A stretch of DNA of 64,000 bases. It comes from Octopus vulgaris (taxonomy: Eukaryota). Position 1 is the stretch's first letter. Every line of letters begins with the position of its first letter. A program made the position numbers and the translations under genes. Shown in pieces: positions 7,887-57,079 of this stretch. A model generated the notes under the pieces. It searched no databases. It worked only from the letters and a program-made list of their open reading frames with translations, and was not told the origin of the DNA. The DNA is taken from the NCBI GenBank assembly GCA_951406725.2, contig OX597830.1, positions 47,740,001 to 47,804,000 on the forward strand, written 5' to 3'.

Positions 7887-8075
7887 TGAGTGTATTTTTA
7901 CCTTGTTAACAATTAACACGGAAAAAAAAATAGTTACCAGGGCAGCAAAAAATCTCACAAGTAAAGGTGTTGTAACTCCTTGTTTATAAAGGTAGAAACT
8001 TCGTGTTTACGTTGAATATTTTGAATAATATGAATAAAAAAAATGGAGTTAACGCAGGTGTAATCAAATATTTTT

Positions 8076-8161
8076 ACTTTCGACACATGTTTCGAAAATT
8101 CCACTGATACTATTCAAAAGAATAAATGGTATAAACAATGCAGTCTTCTCCTCAGGAAAGT
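8076..8161 (-). ncRNA. Hammerhead ribozyme motif in the 3' pLTR of the Penelope element
   Basis: Near-identical reverse complement of 10035-10120: actttc-CTGAGGA-stem II-GAAAC-atgt-GTC-gaaagt. Confidence 0.75.
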
Positions 8162-8362
8162 GAAAAAAACGAAATTCGTCAATAAGACATTTTAGCAAAA
8201 AATGATGGATTTGTATAGCGATAGACAGAACGCTATTAATATTGTTTAAAAAAACGTTATATGATATAACGTCATAAGTAGCTAACAGAAAGAGTAGGGA
8301 TATTAATAGTGAATGTTAAATATAAAGGAAATTAAAGTTTAAATTATATATAATGATAGAGA

Positions 8363-8752
8363 CTACTTATATGAACTAAATGTATGTTTTTGCCAATGCT
8401 TACATCTGTATGCTCGCTCTATAATCGTGTTTACTAGAGTATTTTTAGAAAAAATAATGAAAAATAGCTCAGAATTGCAGAGAAGACAGAATTTCTTGCC
8501 TTTGTCATATGGTATCGAAATTGAGAGAATCAACCATTCTAAATGAAATTGTTCATTATGGTCTTTTAAATCCCAAATCAGTTTGCTGAGACCGGTACTA
8601 TTCCGTTTATTTCTATCCCTAAATGTTGAGTAATGGATAGAAATTCTTTTAGATAACTCTAACGATGTGCTTCCAATGTAAAATCGTACTTTATTACGAG
8701 TACTGATTATACACTGGTATATAGAATTTTTAATCTTAGAGTTACTTGACAT
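8363..8752 (-). pseudogene. Penelope GIY-YIG endonuclease domain
   Basis: SIYQC...FYIGST...KRISIH...STGLSKLIWDLK...CLLCNSE...CKH; separated from the RT frame by a frameshift or stop near 8866. Confidence 0.88.
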
Positions 8753-8865
8753 AAACTTGATTCTATTGGAATTGACTTCAGATACAATAACCTTGTTATT
8801 AATATTTCTAGAGGGTTGGATGGTATTAGTTAAATTAATGTTAGTATTAGTAAATGTATTAATAT

Positions 8866-9971
8866 TTAACAGTTTGTTATTATGAGAAGAGATATAATTT
8901 GCAAGAGATTTTTTGTGTTTGAAAAACCTATCCTAACCTTATGTGAATTGATTATAGAGTAATATCTAGAATTGTTTGGAAAATTCCTAGCAATAGCTTG
9001 ACGAAACAGCAGTGGGAGATTAGATTTAATTTGTCTCCCGTAAGGAATTATTAACCAAATATTTTTACTAGTATTCATAGCGTAATTACTTTTGAAGGTG
9101 TTATATTTACTTTTAGATCGATAATAGGGTATTAAATAAGGGTTATCTGCCTTCATTCGCTTTGTATCGGTGCGTAAGTTATGTTTGTTATCAATAATTC
9201 TTTTACGACTAGAAATCTTATCTACATTATTGAATTTACAATTAGACTGAGCAGAATCAATGTAGACAATTTTCTCTGTATAACCTGCTTTGATTAAGGC
9301 AGAGTTATAGAAGTCAGCGTTATTATTGAAAATATCAACATTAGCAGATAATTTAGATAATCTAAATGAAATATTCTTAACTAAGTTCTTAGTAATTGCT
9401 CCAGGATGATTACTAAATTTGCTAATGTTCTTAAGATTGGTCAACGGTTTACGATATGGGAAGTAAGAGTTACTGTGTAAATTAAGCGTAATATCTAAAA
9501 AGTTGGCCTTCGTCATATCGTCATCAAAAACGATTTTTAAGCCCATTCTACTGAAAAAATTAACTAAACTATTCTTAACTTTTTGTACCTTTTGGTTGGA
9601 AACATTTTGGAGGTAAAGTAAACAATCATCACGATATAGACCTCCATAAATGTTAGGGAACTCTTCAGCCATTTCAAAAAGAATATATATACAGACCAAA
9701 TCAGCTATCTGTGCTGAATCAGAACTTCCCATTGGTATATCGAAACTATCTGGTGTGTCTTTACGGACCCACAACTTATCATCAAATTTAATAATAGATC
9801 TTCTGGCTGCCAACACAACATTAATTTCTTCTCGGGTGAGACCAGCTTTGTTATGAGCAAGCCAAAGTGCCTTATTAAGTACTATTGGATTGATAGATGA
9901 ATAAAAATTGGAAATATCAAACTGGATAAACTTAGTACTCACCTTATTGTTAATAGAACTAAACCAGTCAA
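8866..9971 (-). pseudogene. Penelope-type reverse transcriptase (N-terminally truncated)
   Basis: Motifs FDISNFYSSI, PMGSSDSAQIADL, YRDD, FLDITLNL, PYRKP, SNHP. Confidence 0.9.
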
Positions 9972-10034
9972 CTATCGCTATACAAATCCATCATTTTTTG
10001 CTAAAATGTCTTATTGACGAGTTTCGTTTTTTTC

Positions 10035-10120
10035 ACTTTCCTGAGGAGAAGATTGCATTGTTTATACCATTTATTCTTTTGAATAGTATCAGTGGAATTT
10101 TCGAAACATGTGTCGAAAGT
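10035..10120 (+). ncRNA. Hammerhead ribozyme motif in the inverted pLTR copy
   Basis: Stem I actttc/gaaagt (6 bp); CTGAGGA 10041-10047; stem II gaaga/ttttc extended; GAAA 10103-10106; palindromic ACATGT; GTC cleavage triplet 10112-10114. Confidence 0.78.
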
Positions 10121-10161
10121 AAAAATATTTGATTACACCTGCGTTAACTCCATTTTTTTTA

Positions 10162-10221
<60 letters not shown>

Positions 10222-18991: not shown

Positions 18992-19064
<73 letters not shown>

Positions 19065-19068
<4 letters not shown>

Positions 19069-19900
19069 ACTTAGGCTGAAAGTCAACAAACAATGTTTAC
19101 TTTAGAAGCTTTGAGATGTTTTGAAAGATACAGACAAGGAAATAATTTTATTCTCCAACGCAGGTTAATGCTAATAATATAACATGAACAGGATAAACTA
19201 TACATATTTTTTAGAAAAATCTGTTGGTGGCCAGCCATGAGACTTGAACTCACATCCCTGTGATTAGGCATCAAGTGCTTTACCATTAAGCTAAACTGCC
19301 TAGTGACAAATTCTTCTGCAATTTTAGGATATATAGGTCTACTTTTATAAGACACTATTGTACGTTAAATTCAACTTATGCTGAAAGTCTTATAAAGGTA
19401 GATTTATATATCCTAAAACTGCAGAAGAATTTGTCACTGGGCAATGGTAAAGCACTTGATGCATAATCACAGGGATGTGAGTTCAAAACCCATGGCTGGC
19501 TGCCGACAGATTTTTCTACAAAATATGGATAGTTTATCCTGTTCAAGCTATATTATTAGCATTATCCTGTGTTTGAGAATAAAATTATTTCTTTATCTGT
19601 ATCTTTTAATGCATCTCAACGCTTCTAAAGCCAACTTTGTCTATTGACTTTCAACGTAAGTTGAATTTAATGTCTGATAGTGTCTTATAAAGCTAGATTT
19701 AGATATCCGAAAACTGCAGAAGAATTTGTCGCTGGGCAGTTTAGCTTAATGGTAAAGCACTTGATGCATAATCACAAGGATGTGTATTCAAGTCTCATGG
19801 CTGGCCACCAACAGATTTTTCTGCAAACTATGGATAGCTTATCCTATTCATGTTATATTATTAGCATTATCCTGTGTTTGAGAATAGAATTATTCCCTTA

Positions 19901-19905
<5 letters not shown>
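19065..19905. repeat. Three copies of a ~300 bp unit (first inverted, then two tandem), each containing a tRNA-like sequence
   Basis: 19065-19375 is the reverse complement of ~19385-19680, which is repeated again at ~19680-19905. Confidence 0.85.
19735..19810 (+). pseudogene. tRNA-Met(CAT)-like pseudogene or SINE head
   Basis: A-box TAGCTTAATGGTAAAGC, anticodon loop TGCATAA, T-arm GTG(A)GTTCAAGTCTCAT (best preserved in the 19225-19300 copy), ends GGCTGGCCACCA; stems imperfect. Confidence 0.55.
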
Positions 19906-50151: not shown

Positions 50152-52033
50152 GCTTATTTTCCAACTACATGGTTCCAGGTTCAACTATAGCCTTGGGTTG
50201 ACCAAAGCCTTGTGAGTAGATTTGGTAGATGGAAACTGAAAGAAGCCCATCATACATGTGTGTGTGTGTGTGTGTGTGTGATTGTGTTTGTCCCCCGCCA
50301 CCGCTTAATAACCAGTGTTGGCATTTTTACATTCCAGTAACCTAGCTGTCTGGCAAAAGAGACCAATAAAATAGGCATCAGGTTTAAGAGAAGTACTAGT
50401 GTGGTGGTGGTAGGGTGGTAGTGTTGGTGGGGTGGGCATTCTATTCAACTAAAAATTCTTCAAGATGGTGCCCCAGCATGGCCACAGCCTAATGACTGAC
50501 ACAAATAAAAGAGAAAAGATACGTGCGTATGTGTGTGTGTGTGTAGGTGAGTGTTTATACAAACATATAAATTTATTCAACTATAAATACACACACACAC
50601 ATGCATATACATGCAGTTCTATAAAACCACACATATTCCAACAAACACTCCTCCCCTCCCCTTACCCTCCCTTCTTCCTCCTCCTCCCTCCTCCAACTTC
50701 TTAGATTCCCTTTAATTATTCATTTGCTTTCCTAATATGCCCACTCCAACAACCTCCTACCGCCCCCGCCGCCAGCCAATCCTTTCACCAGCAGAGTAGA
50801 TAATGGCTTTTATCCAGAAATTCAGGAATTGGATATCAAGTAGCTCCAATCTAATCAGATATACTCTGCTGGTGTGACATCACTGAAAATTAATTCAATT
50901 AGGAATTAGAAAAAAAAAAACAAAAAACAAAAAAAAAAACAACATACAAACAAGATAATGTAGACTAATTCTATTAGATTGGAGTGAGGATGGGCGGGTG
51001 GTGGGTGTGAAAGATAAAGTAAAACCAACAACAACAAAAAAATGCCATTTCTTTCTTTCCTTTTCTCTCTCAATTTTTTTTTTTTTTTTTTTTGCATTTT
51101 CAGGAAGTTTTCTAGTGTTATATTTGAAAATATAGGAAGAATTTATATTTTTGCAGAGTGGGAGGATGCAGGGCAGTTTTGATTGATCTGATAAAAACAA
51201 ATCATTGTCATCGATGTTACTACAGTAGGAGTTTTATACACGGTCACTCGATCTGCCTGAAATAGCAGCCAAATTTCCTCCAAATTACACCATACAATTT
51301 TGGTTTTGAAACTATATCTGGGAGGTGCAGGCATGGCTGTGTGGTAAGAAGCTTGCTTTCCAACCACATGGTTCTGGGTTCAGTTCCATTGTATGGAACC
51401 TTGGGCAAGTGTTTTCTACTACAGCCTCGGGCCGACCAAAACCTGAGTGGGTTTGGTAGACGAAAACCGAAAGAAGCCTGTCATATATGTATATATATTT
51501 ATATATATATATATGTGTGTATATATATGCATATATACGAGGGTGAATCAAAAAGTAATGCCATTTTGTTTAGGACAGGTATAATTACCAACACAGGAAC
51601 ATGAATCATACATCAAAATGAAGCTTATTATGAGTTTCTTGTTTTTCCTTTTGGCAAGAAATCAACCAGAATGACACCTTGAGCATCCCAAACCACAGTC
51701 ACCATGATTTTTCCAGCTGAATTTTGTGTTTTGAACTTTTTCGGTGGTGCCATTCCATTGTCTGCCTCTTTGATTCCAGTTCATAATGATGAACCCATGT
51801 TTCATCACTTGTTATGAGCCTTTGAAAGAAGGTGTAGTCTCTTTGACTTTGTAGTGAAGAAGTGGCTCAAAGAACAGTCAACAGAATTTTACAGGGCAGG
51901 GATACATGCTCTCATTCGAAGGTGGAACATTGTTATTGATAGAAACAGTGACTGTTGAGAAGTAGGGAGGTGATCTACAGAAGACCAGCTTCCTTTTGAT
52001 GTATGATACATGTTCCTGAGTTGGTAAATAGAC

Positions 52034-52177
52034 AATACCAAACGAGTTCCCTATGGATACCGTATTTATTACAACGAGTGGCTTGTAAACGTATCTAACG
52101 AGCGAAAGCGAGTTAGATACGTTTACAAGCCACGAGTTGTAATAAATACGGTATCCATAGGGAATGAGTTTGGTATT
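52034..52177 (+). repeat. 144-nt hairpin: 70-position stem and GAAA loop
   Basis: Paired base by base; the only non-Watson-Crick positions are three tandem G.A/A.G pairs and one G-T. Confidence 0.97.
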
Positions 52178-52490
52178 TTATTTATTACACACGAATAAAC
52201 GACCATATTTTATCAATCTAATAATTAAATTCTTCACATCGTGTTGAAGCGCGCATGAATACAGCTTGATTTCACGTCAGTGACGTCACAATGTGTAACT
52301 GTAAAAGATGTCATGCCGCAGGAAGATAGTCCGACTTTATAGTACTAAGTTTTCAGGTGAAATGACTGATAACTGATGACTGTTTAACATTTTGTTAACA
52401 TTCAAGTTCACGTTCAAGAAATACATAACACAGATTGAATCTTCAATAACTTTAATAATACTCAAACCTGTTTTCGAGTAGTAATGTCAG

Positions 52491-54089
52491 TCAGAGTAGA
52501 GCACAATAGTCCAGGAAAACGTAACAGTCCTCATTATCTGTGAGACGAGCTCGCTTTGCATCTGAACCAAAGAAGTTCACATTGATTGCTCCCCCATATA
52601 TTGGAGCCGAGAAAATGGAGTGCAATGAACCAAAGCAAGTGACAGCGTTCCGAGATTGACTCGACGTAACGTTGACGGTGGAGGGGAGTTCACTTGCACT
52701 CGATGCTGCTGCGTGTGACGGAAGTACAAGCAAACCAGGCTGGTCGTTGTTGCTACTAAGGATGTTACTGATGGCATGATGACGATCCATGGAAATATTG
52801 CTGTAACTATTGATGCTTTGCACATTACGATGTCCAGATATCTGCATGATTTCAGTTGGAGGAATGTTCTGGTCAGCGAGCTTCTGCACAAGGTATTTGC
52901 GTGCTGAATGGTTCGTGAATCTTCGATTGTCCAAACCAGCTGATTTAGCCATCCTTTTCATAATTGTACCTAGTTTGTTGACACCGACCGGTTGACGTTT
53001 AAACCAGGGATGAGAATGGGAGGCATCTTTGCAGTTGGTGGCCAAATAAAATGGTGAATCCGGCGATGAATAATCTGATGGTCTCAGATCAGCAAAACAC
53101 TTGTACAGGTTAACTGGACAACGCTCATCATTCGTCGCCCATGCTTTTGCGTAGATGTTACATGCATGGTCGAGATTATCACCTTGACAAGTTTTGGACT
53201 GTCGCTCCCTAAACTGAAGGAATTCCTTGCCTTATTTGTCAACATGCAAAGAAACGTCGCCCCATCGCATGTCGTTGTGAGGTTTGACACTCCGGATACC
53301 AAAGTGAACGGTGTTGTTCCACCATAGTGTGTTGAGGATGGGTTCAGGTGTGTTCAGACCGAGCTGGTCACATTCCCATAGCTTGTTGATATCATCGTCG
53401 GAGAGAGATTCCGTGCATCGAGGTAGGTTTCCCATTCCTTCACTTTTCAACAGCATTTGCTTTGTTTTTAGTACGTCATGTAGTTTCACGAATGCCCCGT
53501 CCGAGAATAGTGACGTCGAGTAGTGTTTTGACTTCAGATATCTTTCAATACTGGATAACATTCCCCTCAAAGATGAAGGTTCATAGTTGCTATCGTCTGG
53601 CTTTCGTAACGAGATAAAGAAAGTACACAGAATGTCACAAAGTTCGCTTTTGTCGATAGATTCAATTGGACGCGTGTCGCCATTTGTCGCCATGAAAGCA
53701 AACAATCGTTTAACATCATAATTTGTTTTCCGAAGAGTGTTTTTATTTTGATTACCTTGAACGAATTTATCTATTCCAGAATGATTATACCTCGGTTGAA
53801 ATTCAAGATCATTATGGCTATCATCAAAGAAATCGTCAGGAAGAAGATCATTGTACACCTCATCAGGGATGTTAAATGTAGGGTTCGATGACAATCTACT
53901 CGTCGATGACACTGTTTCAGGTACCTTTGTTAACCTGTATCCAGCAACATGTCGAACTTGGCCAGTATTGATCTTCACATTGAACATTCTGTATGTTCCA
54001 AGAGGTTGAACAACGGATAACACTCTTCCCCCATCTTTACCATCAATCTTAACAAAATCATTCACCTTGATATCGACAACAGTAGCCAT
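52491..54089 (-). pseudogene. Tyrosine recombinase (Crypton/DUF3504-like), 532 codons with one premature TAA at 53232-53234
   Basis: The two track ORFs are in one frame (VDK*GKEFLQFRERQSKT...CPVNLY...RP...PFYLAT); catalytic set FGIR, SKT, NHSAR, SGH, SINSY; N-part NKNTLRKT...YEPSSLRGMLSSIERYL; ATG in aacaagATGG context. Confidence 0.9.
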
Positions 54090-54377
54090 CTTGTTGATAG
54101 ATCTACCTGCACTGCAAGAGTATTGACGAGCAGACGATATATGTTGTGATTTTTTTGGCAACAAAAAATTGAATTACGACCAGAAATTTTTATATTTTAT
54201 GTGTATATGACTTTAAGTGATATCTGGTATAAAAAAGATAGTATATTTGTTTAATTACATGGCTACATTCTACCTGCTCGTGAAAGTTTAGTTGTAACTT
54301 ATGAATGACAAAAGTAGTGCTGTCACCGTGACCTCGGGTCATCACCATGGATTGACCAATCAGAAGCAGCGCTCGCA

Positions 54378-54399
54378 GTATCTGACATATGTCAGATAC
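54378..54399. repeat. Perfect 22-bp palindrome near the promoter-side end of the YR element
   Basis: gtatctgacat|atgtcagatac. Confidence 0.95.
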
Positions 54400-57079
54400 C
54401 AAAAATATCTCAAAGTGTTCTCACTCACATGTGTGTAATAATTAATTATACCTGTCCTTAACAAAATGGCATTACTTTTTGGCTCACCCATGTATATCTG
54501 TGTGTGTGTGTCTGTGTTTGTCCCTCCACCACTGCTTGGCAACCGATGTTGGTGTGTTTATGTCCCTGTAACTTAGCAGTTTGGCAAAAGAGACCAATAG
54601 AATAAGTATTAGGCTTACAAAGAATAAGTCCCGGGGTTGATTTGTTCAACTAAAGGCGGTGCTCCAGCATGGCTGCAGTCAAAATGACTGAAACAAGCAA
54701 AAGAATAAAAGAATAAATGTGGTCCCTGATGCAATAAAAAAAAACAAAATAAAAAGGGATGTCGACAGCAAGGCTCCCTGTCATCATGAGTCTGCTTTTA
54801 AGGGGTTTATTACAGAAACATGCAGGAAAATCAATTTTACATTGCAGAATATTATGTTGCATTGAGTTTTTTCAGGAATGTATTTCCTCCATAGTGTAGG
54901 GGATTCGAGAAGTTTCCTTGCTGACCATATGATTCTTGGTTCAGTCTCACTGTATGGCACCCTGGCTAAGTGTCTTCTGCTACAGTCCTGGGCCAACCAA
55001 AGCCTTGTGAGTGAATTTGGTAGATGGAAACTGAAAGAAGCCTGTTAAATGTGTGTGTGGCTGTGAGTCCGTAACACCATTTGCTAATTAGTGTCAGTGT
55101 GTTTAAGCCCTTGTAACTTAGCAGTTTGGCAAAAGAAACTAATAGAGTAAGTGCCAGGCTCAAAAAAATATGGACCGGGGTTGATTCATCTGACCAAGAA
55201 TTCTTCCAGATACATACATTCATGAATGCACACACACACGCATGCACACACACACACACGCACACGTGCGCACACACACATAGACACACACACACACACA
55301 CACAAACACATACACAGAAACAAACCCACACACACGCATACACACACATCTGCTATACAGGCACATAAAGAATCAGATATAAATCAATGCTTTATTCTGA
55401 AGCAAAGATACATAAAATATAACCCGCCACACACACTCAAATGTAAATACACAAACACATATGAATTACACAAAAATCAAAGACATAAATATAAGAACAA
55501 AATCACCCAAAATGTAATATGTGTCTACTCAGATATGGAAATACATAACCAGGTGTGTATGTACACACACACTCACACACTCTCTCACACACACACACAC
55601 ACACTACCATTCTGTATGTACAGAGTTATGGGTTCTCATTGCAGAGAATTACAAATATTTAATGAAGTCATTTGTTTTATTGGTTGAGATCATCACCAAC
55701 AGAAGCAGCTGTCTATACTGTCTGTAGTCTTGGCACCAATGCCATTATGGTCAGCACTATCCCCACCACCACCACCACCACCGCCACCACCATCACCATT
55801 ATCGTCATCCTTGGTTTTAGCATTGTATGTATCAAAGTGTCGTTGACATCAACCACTGACAGCATCACTACTGCAGTCGCCATTATTAGCTTGTCTTCTT
55901 CCATTCACGTACAATGTTGAATGTGGCGTAACATCAGGTGCCACGTGGCGTGAAATGTCTGAGTCAATGAGCCACGCTAATAAGACAGCACTTGTCTCAC
56001 CGTTGAAGAACATATTCAAGTCATAACAGTGTCAGCCTTAGAGTCTCATCTTCTAGAAGAGCAATTGGAGTGGAATTTAATGGGAATCTAATCATGCTAC
56101 ACACACACAGACACATCCACACACATATGCATACTGTATCGGCTGTACCAAATCTGTGAAGTATGATATGGATTCATATTCTATATCAGATACATGACAC
56201 ATATATCATCATCATTATCATCATCGTTTAACATCCGTTTTCCATGCTGGCATGGGTTGGACAGTTTAACCAGGGCTGGTAAGCTTAGGGGCTGCACCAG
56301 GTTCCAGTCTAATTTGGCATGGTTACTACAGCTGGATGCCCTTCCTAATGCCAACCACTCCGAGAGTGTAATGGGTGCTTTTTACGTGCCACCAGCACAG
56401 GGTCCATGATTTGATAAGTAATAAGGAACTCTGGGAAGAGCTGAACAGCAGAAAATCTTCAGAGAGAAACCTGTATGCTGGCTGTTTTAACCAGGTCATT
56501 CAAAGACAACAATTCCCTGAAGGATAAGTTATGTCTTTTGGAATTCATTTCCACCAGACTCTAGTCTGATTTGGGATGGTTTCTATAGCTGGATGCCCTT
56601 CATAACGTCAACCACTCTGAGAGTGTAATGAGTGCTTTTACATGCCAGCGGCACAGGCACCATTTGTGTGACACCAGTATCTGCCACGACTGTGATTTTA
56701 CTTGGCTTGATGGGTCTTCTTCTCAAGCACAACATAATGCCAAAGGTCTCAGTCATTGTCTCCATGCAGCCCAACACTCAAAAGGTGCTTTCCAAGTGCC
56801 ACTGGCACAGGTGCCAGTTACGTGATACCAGCATTATCCATGATTGGTTTTCACTTGGCTTGACGGCTCTTCTCAATCACAGTATCTCTAGTCAAATAAA
56901 TTAACCTCAGTACTCAAGCATACGTTTTATTGATCTTTGAAGAATGAAAGTCCTAGGATGATGAAAGGCATAGCTGACCATGGCAGGATTTGAACTTGGA
57001 ACACTAGACATAGCAAAATACAGCAAAGACTTTCCCCTTCTTCACTTATGCTTCTACCAATTAAAGGAAGTTTACTCAC

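Follow-up and report, generated by a model that had tools for sequence, protein, structure and literature searches.

The window, that is, the whole 64,000-nucleotide stretch of Octopus vulgaris DNA analysed here, contains a CryptonA-type element inserted into another repeat. The features are as follows, in order of position.

51538..54492, no strand: host repeat bearing long terminal inverted repeats and bounded by TA, its right repeat split by the Crypton (from the sequence); presumably mariner-like, from its terminal motif
52023..52027, plus strand: left half of the target, GGTAA; family pattern R-A-T-A-W (from copy flanks)
52028..54441, minus strand: whole CryptonA-type element, 2,414 bp, with the gene on the minus strand and the folding G·A strand on the plus strand (from copies with different flanks and empty sites)
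52028..52034, plus strand: 5′ heptanucleotide of the element, long side of the putative 7/5 spacer, delimited by the putative nick between 52027 and 52028
52034..52177, plus strand: terminal hairpin with three tandem GA/GA loops (direct sequence reading and DNA folding)
52102..52109, plus strand: mini-hairpin apex GCGAAAGC (from the sequence)
52177..52181, plus strand: short side (5 nt) of the putative spacer bubble (junction fold and stem-base search)
52182..52192, plus strand: inner box TTATTACACAC, which the far end repeats exactly in inverted orientation (sequence and copies)
52491..54089, minus strand: tyrosine recombinase gene of 532 codons, with DUF3504 and Phage_integrase (domain matches)
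54431..54441, plus strand: far-end box GTGTGTAATAA, which would pair with the inner box after the ends join (copies, empty site and the fold of a natural junction, L023)
54442..54451, plus strand: right half of the target, a 6-nt spacer then ATA; family pattern W-T-W at +7 to +9 (from copy flanks)

The recombinase gene is the lone ORF and fills the 2.4-kb element, which contains no reverse transcriptase, RNase H or DDE transposase. In a profile search its product matched DUF3504, QRICH1 and Phage_integrase. No Pfam domain was found after the tyrosine recombinase domain, unlike in CryptonF with its C-terminal DNA-binding domain, and the C-terminal 65 residues have low confidence in the predicted structure. 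The window copy carries just one in-frame stop, at 53232-53234, and other genomic copies have open frames. The catalytic residues are conserved among 37 aligned proteins: R266 and H394 in 36/37, K299 in 35/37, and R397, H420 and Y429 in 37/37. The predicted structure shows a tyrosine recombinase fold nearest to QRICH1, Cre (Z 15.8) and Xer (Z 16.1), with the integron integrase IntI lower (2a3v: Z 13.2, rmsd 5.6, 255 aligned); among solved structures its nearest relative is QRICH1, encoded by a gene derived from CryptonA. The N-terminus of the recombinase (53910-54085, minus strand; model residues 3-60) is predicted to form a small beta-barrel like Tudor/KOW (Z 8.6, rmsd 1.7, 55 aligned), a likeness that is weak because Z values near 8 are common, and this barrel is possibly a chromatin reader.

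We found 108 homologs among 573 candidates, the best being an Octopus sinensis protein, 96% identical; the other named homologs come from molluscs and one coral. No relative was found in viral contigs. Prokaryote genome bins gave 5 matches, 3 strong and 2 weak, and the strong ones are likely animal contamination: L150, L151 and L152 are Crypton copies with animal-type ends in bacterial genome bins, for which host contamination is the most likely source. Three distant DUF3504-like genes of the octopus genome (L064, L067 and L068, open frames with 24-30% identity) have no hairpin within about 1.5 kb and are likely domesticated genes.

The genome holds at least 141 copies, counted as exact matches to the apex pattern, and a first look gave 361-367 genomic candidates for either element end. 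Near-complete recombinase copies number seven, two of them with open frames of 546 and 583 codons; most copies are internally deleted, measure 360-1,300 bp and retain both ends, 418 bp being the commonest size. The termini are not inverted repeats of each other and carry no long direct repeats. In some copies a 52-bp unit near the far end, containing what we take to be a CCAAT-like word, is repeated in tandem up to about eight times (G000:C2:205252617-205253000, C2:205552922-205553335 and C1:6835160-6835463). Judged by its gene, catalytic residues, ends, dispersed non-autonomous copies and nearness to QRICH1, the element behaves as a CryptonA. The earlier note had suggested a eukaryotic Crypton-type tyrosine-recombinase element, and the domain matches, catalytic residues and structural matches bear this out. 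Membership of IS200/IS605, Helitron or Replitron was rejected on the tyrosine recombinase fold, which is not that of a HUH endonuclease, and membership of DIRS/Ngaro on the single ORF without reverse transcriptase or RNase H. Elsewhere in the window, inverted repeats of 197 nt, 99% complementary and 1,747 nt apart (8028-10168), are likely a young DNA transposon, and nested long inverted repeats of 227-260 nt, 87-88% complementary, lie at 19061-19905.

The hairpin starts 6 nt inside the element end at 52028. Its arm 52034-52103 pairs with the arm 52108-52177, and GA stands opposite GA at 52044-45/52166-67, 52076-77/52134-35 and 52100-01/52110-11; all three internal loops are GA/GA in a YGAR context. 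These coordinates, arms, mismatch sites and the apex GCGAAAGC are all where the earlier note had put them. Folded as DNA, the plus-strand hairpin gave -66.3 kcal/mol (z -21.9, with 0/200 shuffles as good), and the palindrome is far beyond chance. It had also been claimed that only the plus strand folds well, which is unsupported since the minus strand also folds in the same DNA energy model (-64.2 kcal/mol, z -20.5), leaving a strand gap of 2 kcal/mol only. Tandem G·A pairs are sheared and stable in a YGAR context. Published DNA melting points, 76.5 C for d(GCGAAAGC) versus 33 C for d(GCTTTTGC) in the accessible part of PMC13037366, suggest that the true strand gap at the apex is larger than modelled. 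The TGAG variant had been read as CpG decay; its T at 52165 is present in 31/31 of the copies listed, so it did not decay in the window copy, although decay in the founder is possible. An Rfam search returned miRNA matches below threshold only.

Homologous loci were collected from metagenome and genome-bin contigs with the 37-protein alignment as query. The best 80 of 430 metagenome loci and 5 genome-bin loci formed 38 nucleotide clusters, or 35 after L151, L153 and L154 were dropped (two weak matches and one without downstream DNA). Fourteen families showed end hairpins, among them 12 of the 18 families having at least 700 nt downstream; the absence of an end hairpin in the other 6/18 counts against the model proposed below. 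The loop tally covers 25 end hairpins of 12 families, assigned by hand. On the strand with the hairpin at its 5′ end, the two-by-two loops are GA/GA in 46/69 cases, TC/TC in 5/69 and other in 18/69. All 46 GA/GA loops lie in a YGAR/YGAR context, and the 5 TC/TC loops all fall in three inverted copies. The GA/GA mismatches are kept across relatives while the stems differ, matching that of the window at 59-78/144 positions only. The expected conservation of the GCGAAAGC apex was not observed, relatives having mostly C-GNA-G triloops, which cap 7/12 families.

Most families carry GA on the strand antisense to the gene. Family 1 has its gene flipped, with the hairpin upstream of it and GA in the sense orientation, yet the hairpin is still at the 5′ end of the GA strand. 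The G·A design thus follows the element end and not the transcript, which agrees with the earlier view that the structure is not a sense-mRNA fold. Four loci seemed to break this rule by having GA in the sense orientation, but proved on inspection to be no exceptions: L077 has an inverted interior, and the hairpins in L076, L115 and L141 belong to other small elements of the same design on the other strand. These small non-coding GA-hairpin elements (L076:3690-3804, L115:1795-1914 and L141:1545-1675) occupy the same site inside a related Crypton; the sharing of this site by three contigs of two different families reflects either a hot spot or shared ancestry.

The far end pairs, through an inverted box of 11 bp, with a site lying 155 nt within the element, and the word TTATTACA is found in the stem, in the inner box and at the far end. 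Since the bases immediately inside the hairpin complement those of the far end, joining of the ends would lengthen the stem and build a recombinase core. The sole natural head-to-tail junction found in the genome, L023, folds in this way, with the stem lengthened through the 11-bp box and a small asymmetric bubble directly after the junction. After joining, the core would read TAA, a 7-nt/5-nt bubble, then TTA or ATA, like an integron attC. Pairing between the far end and the inner flank was found in 6/12 homologous loci with enough upstream DNA (L078, L085, L093, L098, L114 and L150) and was missing in L074, L075, L079, L087, L130 and L152, three of which have 5′-truncated gene matches. The match reaches 27/28 in L150, and 13/13 and 11/11 in the two branches of family 1; the matching has no formal null, the best chance matches being 10-11/13 and those observed 11-13/13 and extending further. 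At the stem base there are 7 nt on the cut arm versus 5 nt opposite, followed mostly by TTA. The ends of this 7/5 spacer are fixed independently in the element's own family and in family 1, partly in families 2, 3 and 5, and are fitted elsewhere. An automatic search of 26 loci showed 7/5 in 15, with the register shifted in 3, an inner position in 2 and failure in 6, a fit that has some freedom in AT-rich sequence and no formal null. The recombination site is likely the stem base completed by the far end, and not the G·A-studded part. Head-to-tail elements occur at L023:1503-2501 in the octopus genome (two different deletion forms) and in the homologous locus L114:2380-2600 (elements from two families), a hint of cassette-like arrays.

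The flanks of the copies define the target as a pseudo-palindrome, ATAW-N6-WTW. In the left flank, A stands at -2 in 103/103 copies, T at -3 in 87/103 and A at -4 in 83/103; in the right flank, T stands at +8 in 70/90 (p 4e-19) and A at +1 in 59/90. Likeness of the flank to the element's first bases is confined to A at +1 and T at +2, and the element's G at +4 or +6 has no match in the target flanks. Empty sites were sought for 88 copies, 7 of which had an apparent empty paralog (1 of them a self-match); no extra bases were found at 5/5 informative empty sites, indicating that the target is not duplicated. The window site shows 4 extra bases relative to 34/36 paralogous empty sites and an exact fit to one natural variant only, and the window copy's own insertion site is ambiguous. 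The element's 6-nt spacer stands on the hairpin side in 90/90 copies, and the reciprocal junction arrangement was found in 0/90; in 3 copies a look-alike of this spacer is also present on the far side (the tandem, a TA run and one chance-like match). Two-strand exchange across unlike spacers would yield both arrangements, while one exchange on the G·A strand yields the observed one. A single junction type could also result when an exchange of two strands is followed by biased repair.

In many copies mismatch sites of one arm have been rewritten from the other arm. The hairpin is intact in 93/106 copies, and in 49 one or more mismatch sites have become exactly complementary to the opposite arm, among them 3-base changes copied from TGAG or CGAG. 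An inverted apex is seen in 25/93 copies, and 20 show non-contiguous tracts. When copies were picked by pattern and not by score, 46/71 were converted (GA-to-TC) or flipped and 24 inverted, with a private divergence of 0.9%. Symmetric inversions are absent among the fully scored copies, which rules against a simple crossover between the arms as the source of the flip, and 23/24 inverted copies have further conversions at outer sites. All examined subfamilies trace to the unflipped form, and two subfamilies contain mixed states, indicating that conversion took place per copy from an unconverted founder. A 587-nt near-perfect palindrome (L065:22-608) is separated by 230 nt from a copy with an almost entirely inverted hairpin interior.

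As to when these conversions arose, substitutions in the stem are mirrored in 1 case versus 106 unmirrored. About 20.6 mirrored substitutions would be expected if conversion happened at sequencing or assembly (p 2e-8) and 8.5 if it happened at random times after insertion (p 0.002); with singletons only, the values are p 0.0002 for assembly time and a marginal p 0.053 for random post-insertion times. This test assumes that conversion is independent of mismatch type and loses its power under short assumed tracts. Seven copies that multiplied passively in another repeat are unconverted at two outer sites (7/7), versus 45/71 converted. L168, L171, L242, L246, L253, L254 and L263 represent one Crypton insertion multiplied as cargo of a repeat ending in a TA run, and an apparent apex-less subfamily was rejected, its members being a single insertion that had multiplied within another repeat. 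The spread of divergence between copies does not exceed Poisson, which makes an age test of the conversions weak. The data favour, as far as such patterns can be read, conversions at or near insertion. For one converted copy, contigs from 4 read runs contained the right junction in 3/4; the abundant flank repeat swamped the search, and none phased the converted site with the flank.

Of 30 loci picked by their far end, 28 were short enough to score, and 28/28 keep the inner box and part of the hairpin; the apex is lost in 11, through 7 independent events that mostly fall between short direct repeats, and 2 lack part of the left arm. No apex-less or converted form was seen founding a family, although dead copies shed mismatches readily, suggesting selection at transposition. 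The conversions show that the hairpin folds; they do not show that the recombinase needs the fold.

We consider it reasonably probable, from these sequence patterns, that the hairpin end is a folded single-strand recombination site and that the element's own recombinase integrates it via one strand exchange. The G·A strand would be released from the donor in circular form, its far end (..TAA) linked to its 5′ end (ATAG..), and this release is the least supported step. The circle would fold into a rod, whose base would form the recombinase core with two inverted boxes around the 7/5 bubble. The enzyme would nick the folded site after TAA and the target after ATAW and swap those strands, a swap that would need pairing at the first 1-2 bases only, and the second strand would be copied by replication or repair. 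In the folded rod, mismatches would often be 'corrected' from the other arm and the tip flipped or deleted. Sheared G·A pairs together with GNA or GAAA loops would make a strand that folds stably, while the locus avoids a perfect palindrome, and elements losing these pairs or loops would likely found no new families. The analogy with attC and with integration of the CTX phage, drawn in the earlier note, fits more closely than could be seen then, through the far-end pairing, the junctions, the target and the 7/5 bubble.

The hairpin might instead serve mainly in copying, as a priming signal or as a protected end for second-strand synthesis of a copied-out strand, with recombination acting on double-stranded circles; this is compatible with the folded-strand model, and the sequence does not decide whether the hairpin serves recombination or replication. 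GCGAAAGC is present at the phage G4 primase site and in other single-strand initiation signals, according to the accessible text of PMC13037366, the G·A loops lie 10-70 bp from the putative core, and strand-biased circularisation by tyrosine recombinases that lack attC-like folds is known from SE elements, as reported in the available part of PMC9345347. A main role in copying is nevertheless unlikely, as it leaves unexplained the pairing of far end and inner flank in stem register, the 7/5 bubble at the cut and the single junction type, and no primase, polymerase or HUH protein is encoded in the element.

It is also improbable that the element moves as a classical Crypton, excised as a double-stranded circle and inserted by two strand exchanges across a mismatched 6-bp spacer, with the palindrome serving as a binding-site array or a synapsis cruciform. 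The circle model is the published one (PMC3212892, in its accessible text), clean CryptonF excisions have been seen (PMC9977147, likewise in part), the target is pseudo-palindromic with a 6-nt spacer, and the TTATTACA repeats could be read as binding sites. This mechanism predicts both junction types, whereas a single type is seen in 90/90 copies; its duplex junction spacer would be 7 nt versus 6 nt in the target, and duplex binding sites do not account for one-strand GA/GA loops in 12 families with unrelated stems.

The inverted apex in 25/93 copies, with inverted forms also in the homologs L077, L090 and L096, could point to a protelomerase or terminal-resolvase-like enzyme that opens the closed hairpin end of a linear intermediate into flip and flop forms. 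We regard this as very improbable: clean nick-and-fill predicts symmetric inversions, which are absent among the fully scored copies, the flipped copies are also converted at outer sites (23/24), the element boundary lies at the stem base and not at the apex, and the examined subfamilies all come from the unflipped form. GAAA loops and tandem GA pairs are common in RNA. Action of the hairpin as RNA (antisense transcript, small-RNA precursor or terminator) might also be suggested by the former annotation of the Crypton-derived repeat Eulor5A as a pre-miRNA (PMC3495686, available in part), and a functionless by-product of template switching might be imagined, but we give such readings very little credence, since the GA strand is antisense in most families and sense in family 1, GNA triloops dominate, r(GCGAAAGC) melts at 39 C versus 76.5 C as DNA (PMC13037366, accessible part), and template switching erases mismatches in copies, yet families retain them.

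Returning to the folded single-strand site used by the element's own enzyme, we lean slightly towards a wider proposal. CryptonA elements may be self-mobile, integron-cassette-like animal units, the first tyrosine recombinase system of eukaryotes to recombine a folded single strand; this strand would be chosen by sheared tandem G·A pairs and inserted at ATAW-N6-WTW without target duplication or double-strand break, each copy keeping a record of host repair. The design would extend across animal CryptonA, human Eulor5/6 fossils and possibly further Crypton groups. Hairpins are reportedly mentioned in some Eulor entries, and the palindrome as such may thus already be on record. Eulor5/6 are human fossils of CryptonA according to the accessible part of PMC5753468. 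The available parts of the 2026 Glomhopper paper and of Kojima 2018 do not mention hairpins, and no description of such Crypton ends was found in the literature searched, which covers few subscription papers and no Repbase or Dfam notes. The evidence for an integron-like folded single-strand mechanism is circumstantial but good, and within that literature no such mechanism is described for eukaryotes.

How animal Cryptons move has been an open question since they were described as having no recognisable ends, and the anatomy supplies a specific mechanism whose substrates are defined, namely the strand that folds, the position of the nick and the rule for targets. If this is true, recombination of folded single-stranded DNA by tyrosine recombinases, so far found in bacterial integrons and CTX phage, also takes place in animals, sheared tandem G·A pairs in DNA serve a biological role under selection, and the ZMYM/QRICH1/KCTD1 domain descends from structure-reading enzymes. 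A 520-residue enzyme inserting single-stranded cargo, with a minimal element of 360 bp and without target duplication, could then become a tool.

The window element resembles CryptonA as described in the accessible text of Kojima and Jurka 2011 (PMC3212892) in its single DUF3504 tyrosine recombinase, its size of about 2 kb, its many internally deleted derivatives, the absence of target duplication and its nearness to QRICH1/ZMYM. Animal Cryptons are reported there to have no terminal repeats (n.d. for all CryptonA entries), and the words hairpin, palindrome and single-strand do not occur in that accessible text; in contrast to the published CryptonA, the ends of the window element have a defined asymmetric structure and a defined target. 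Against other systems, the candidate site can be set beside several single-strand recombination pathways. Integration of CTX at dif joins a folded single strand to a duplex site, and replication completes the process; it uses host enzymes and one fixed site, whereas the Crypton has an element-encoded enzyme and hundreds of degenerate sites. IS605 has one active strand and inserts 3′ of a short motif without duplication, by means of a HUH enzyme and hairpins at both ends; the Crypton would share the single active strand and the insertion 3′ of a short motif without duplication, but with a tyrosine recombinase instead of HUH. In the available part of PMC9345347, CTX phage integration by XerCD is named, and SE elements are described as forming one-strand circles by tyrosine recombinases, with four core genes and no attC-like fold.

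The closest likeness is to attC, for which PMC5027507, in its accessible text, describes a strand that folds, nicking of the outer box after AA, an unpaired spacer, a purine skew with a GAA tip and replicative resolution. As in attC, the Crypton site lies downstream of the gene in most families and its outer box comes from the other end of the unit; purines in unpaired parts favour one strand and the tip is GAA; the cut would fall after AA beside an unpaired spacer, and a single strand exchange would follow. Unlike attC, the Crypton end has a longer stem with tandem G·A pairs and no single extrahelical or bulged bases, and a core ..TAA/A instead of RYYYAAC/GTTRRRY. Unlike an integron, the element encodes its own recombinase and is dispersed, without an intI-attI-promoter platform; its protein is no closer to IntI than to other tyrosine recombinases (Cre, Xer), and its target spacer is 6 nt with weak homology. 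By analogy, the Crypton end would work like attC in its geometry, but it is no integron.
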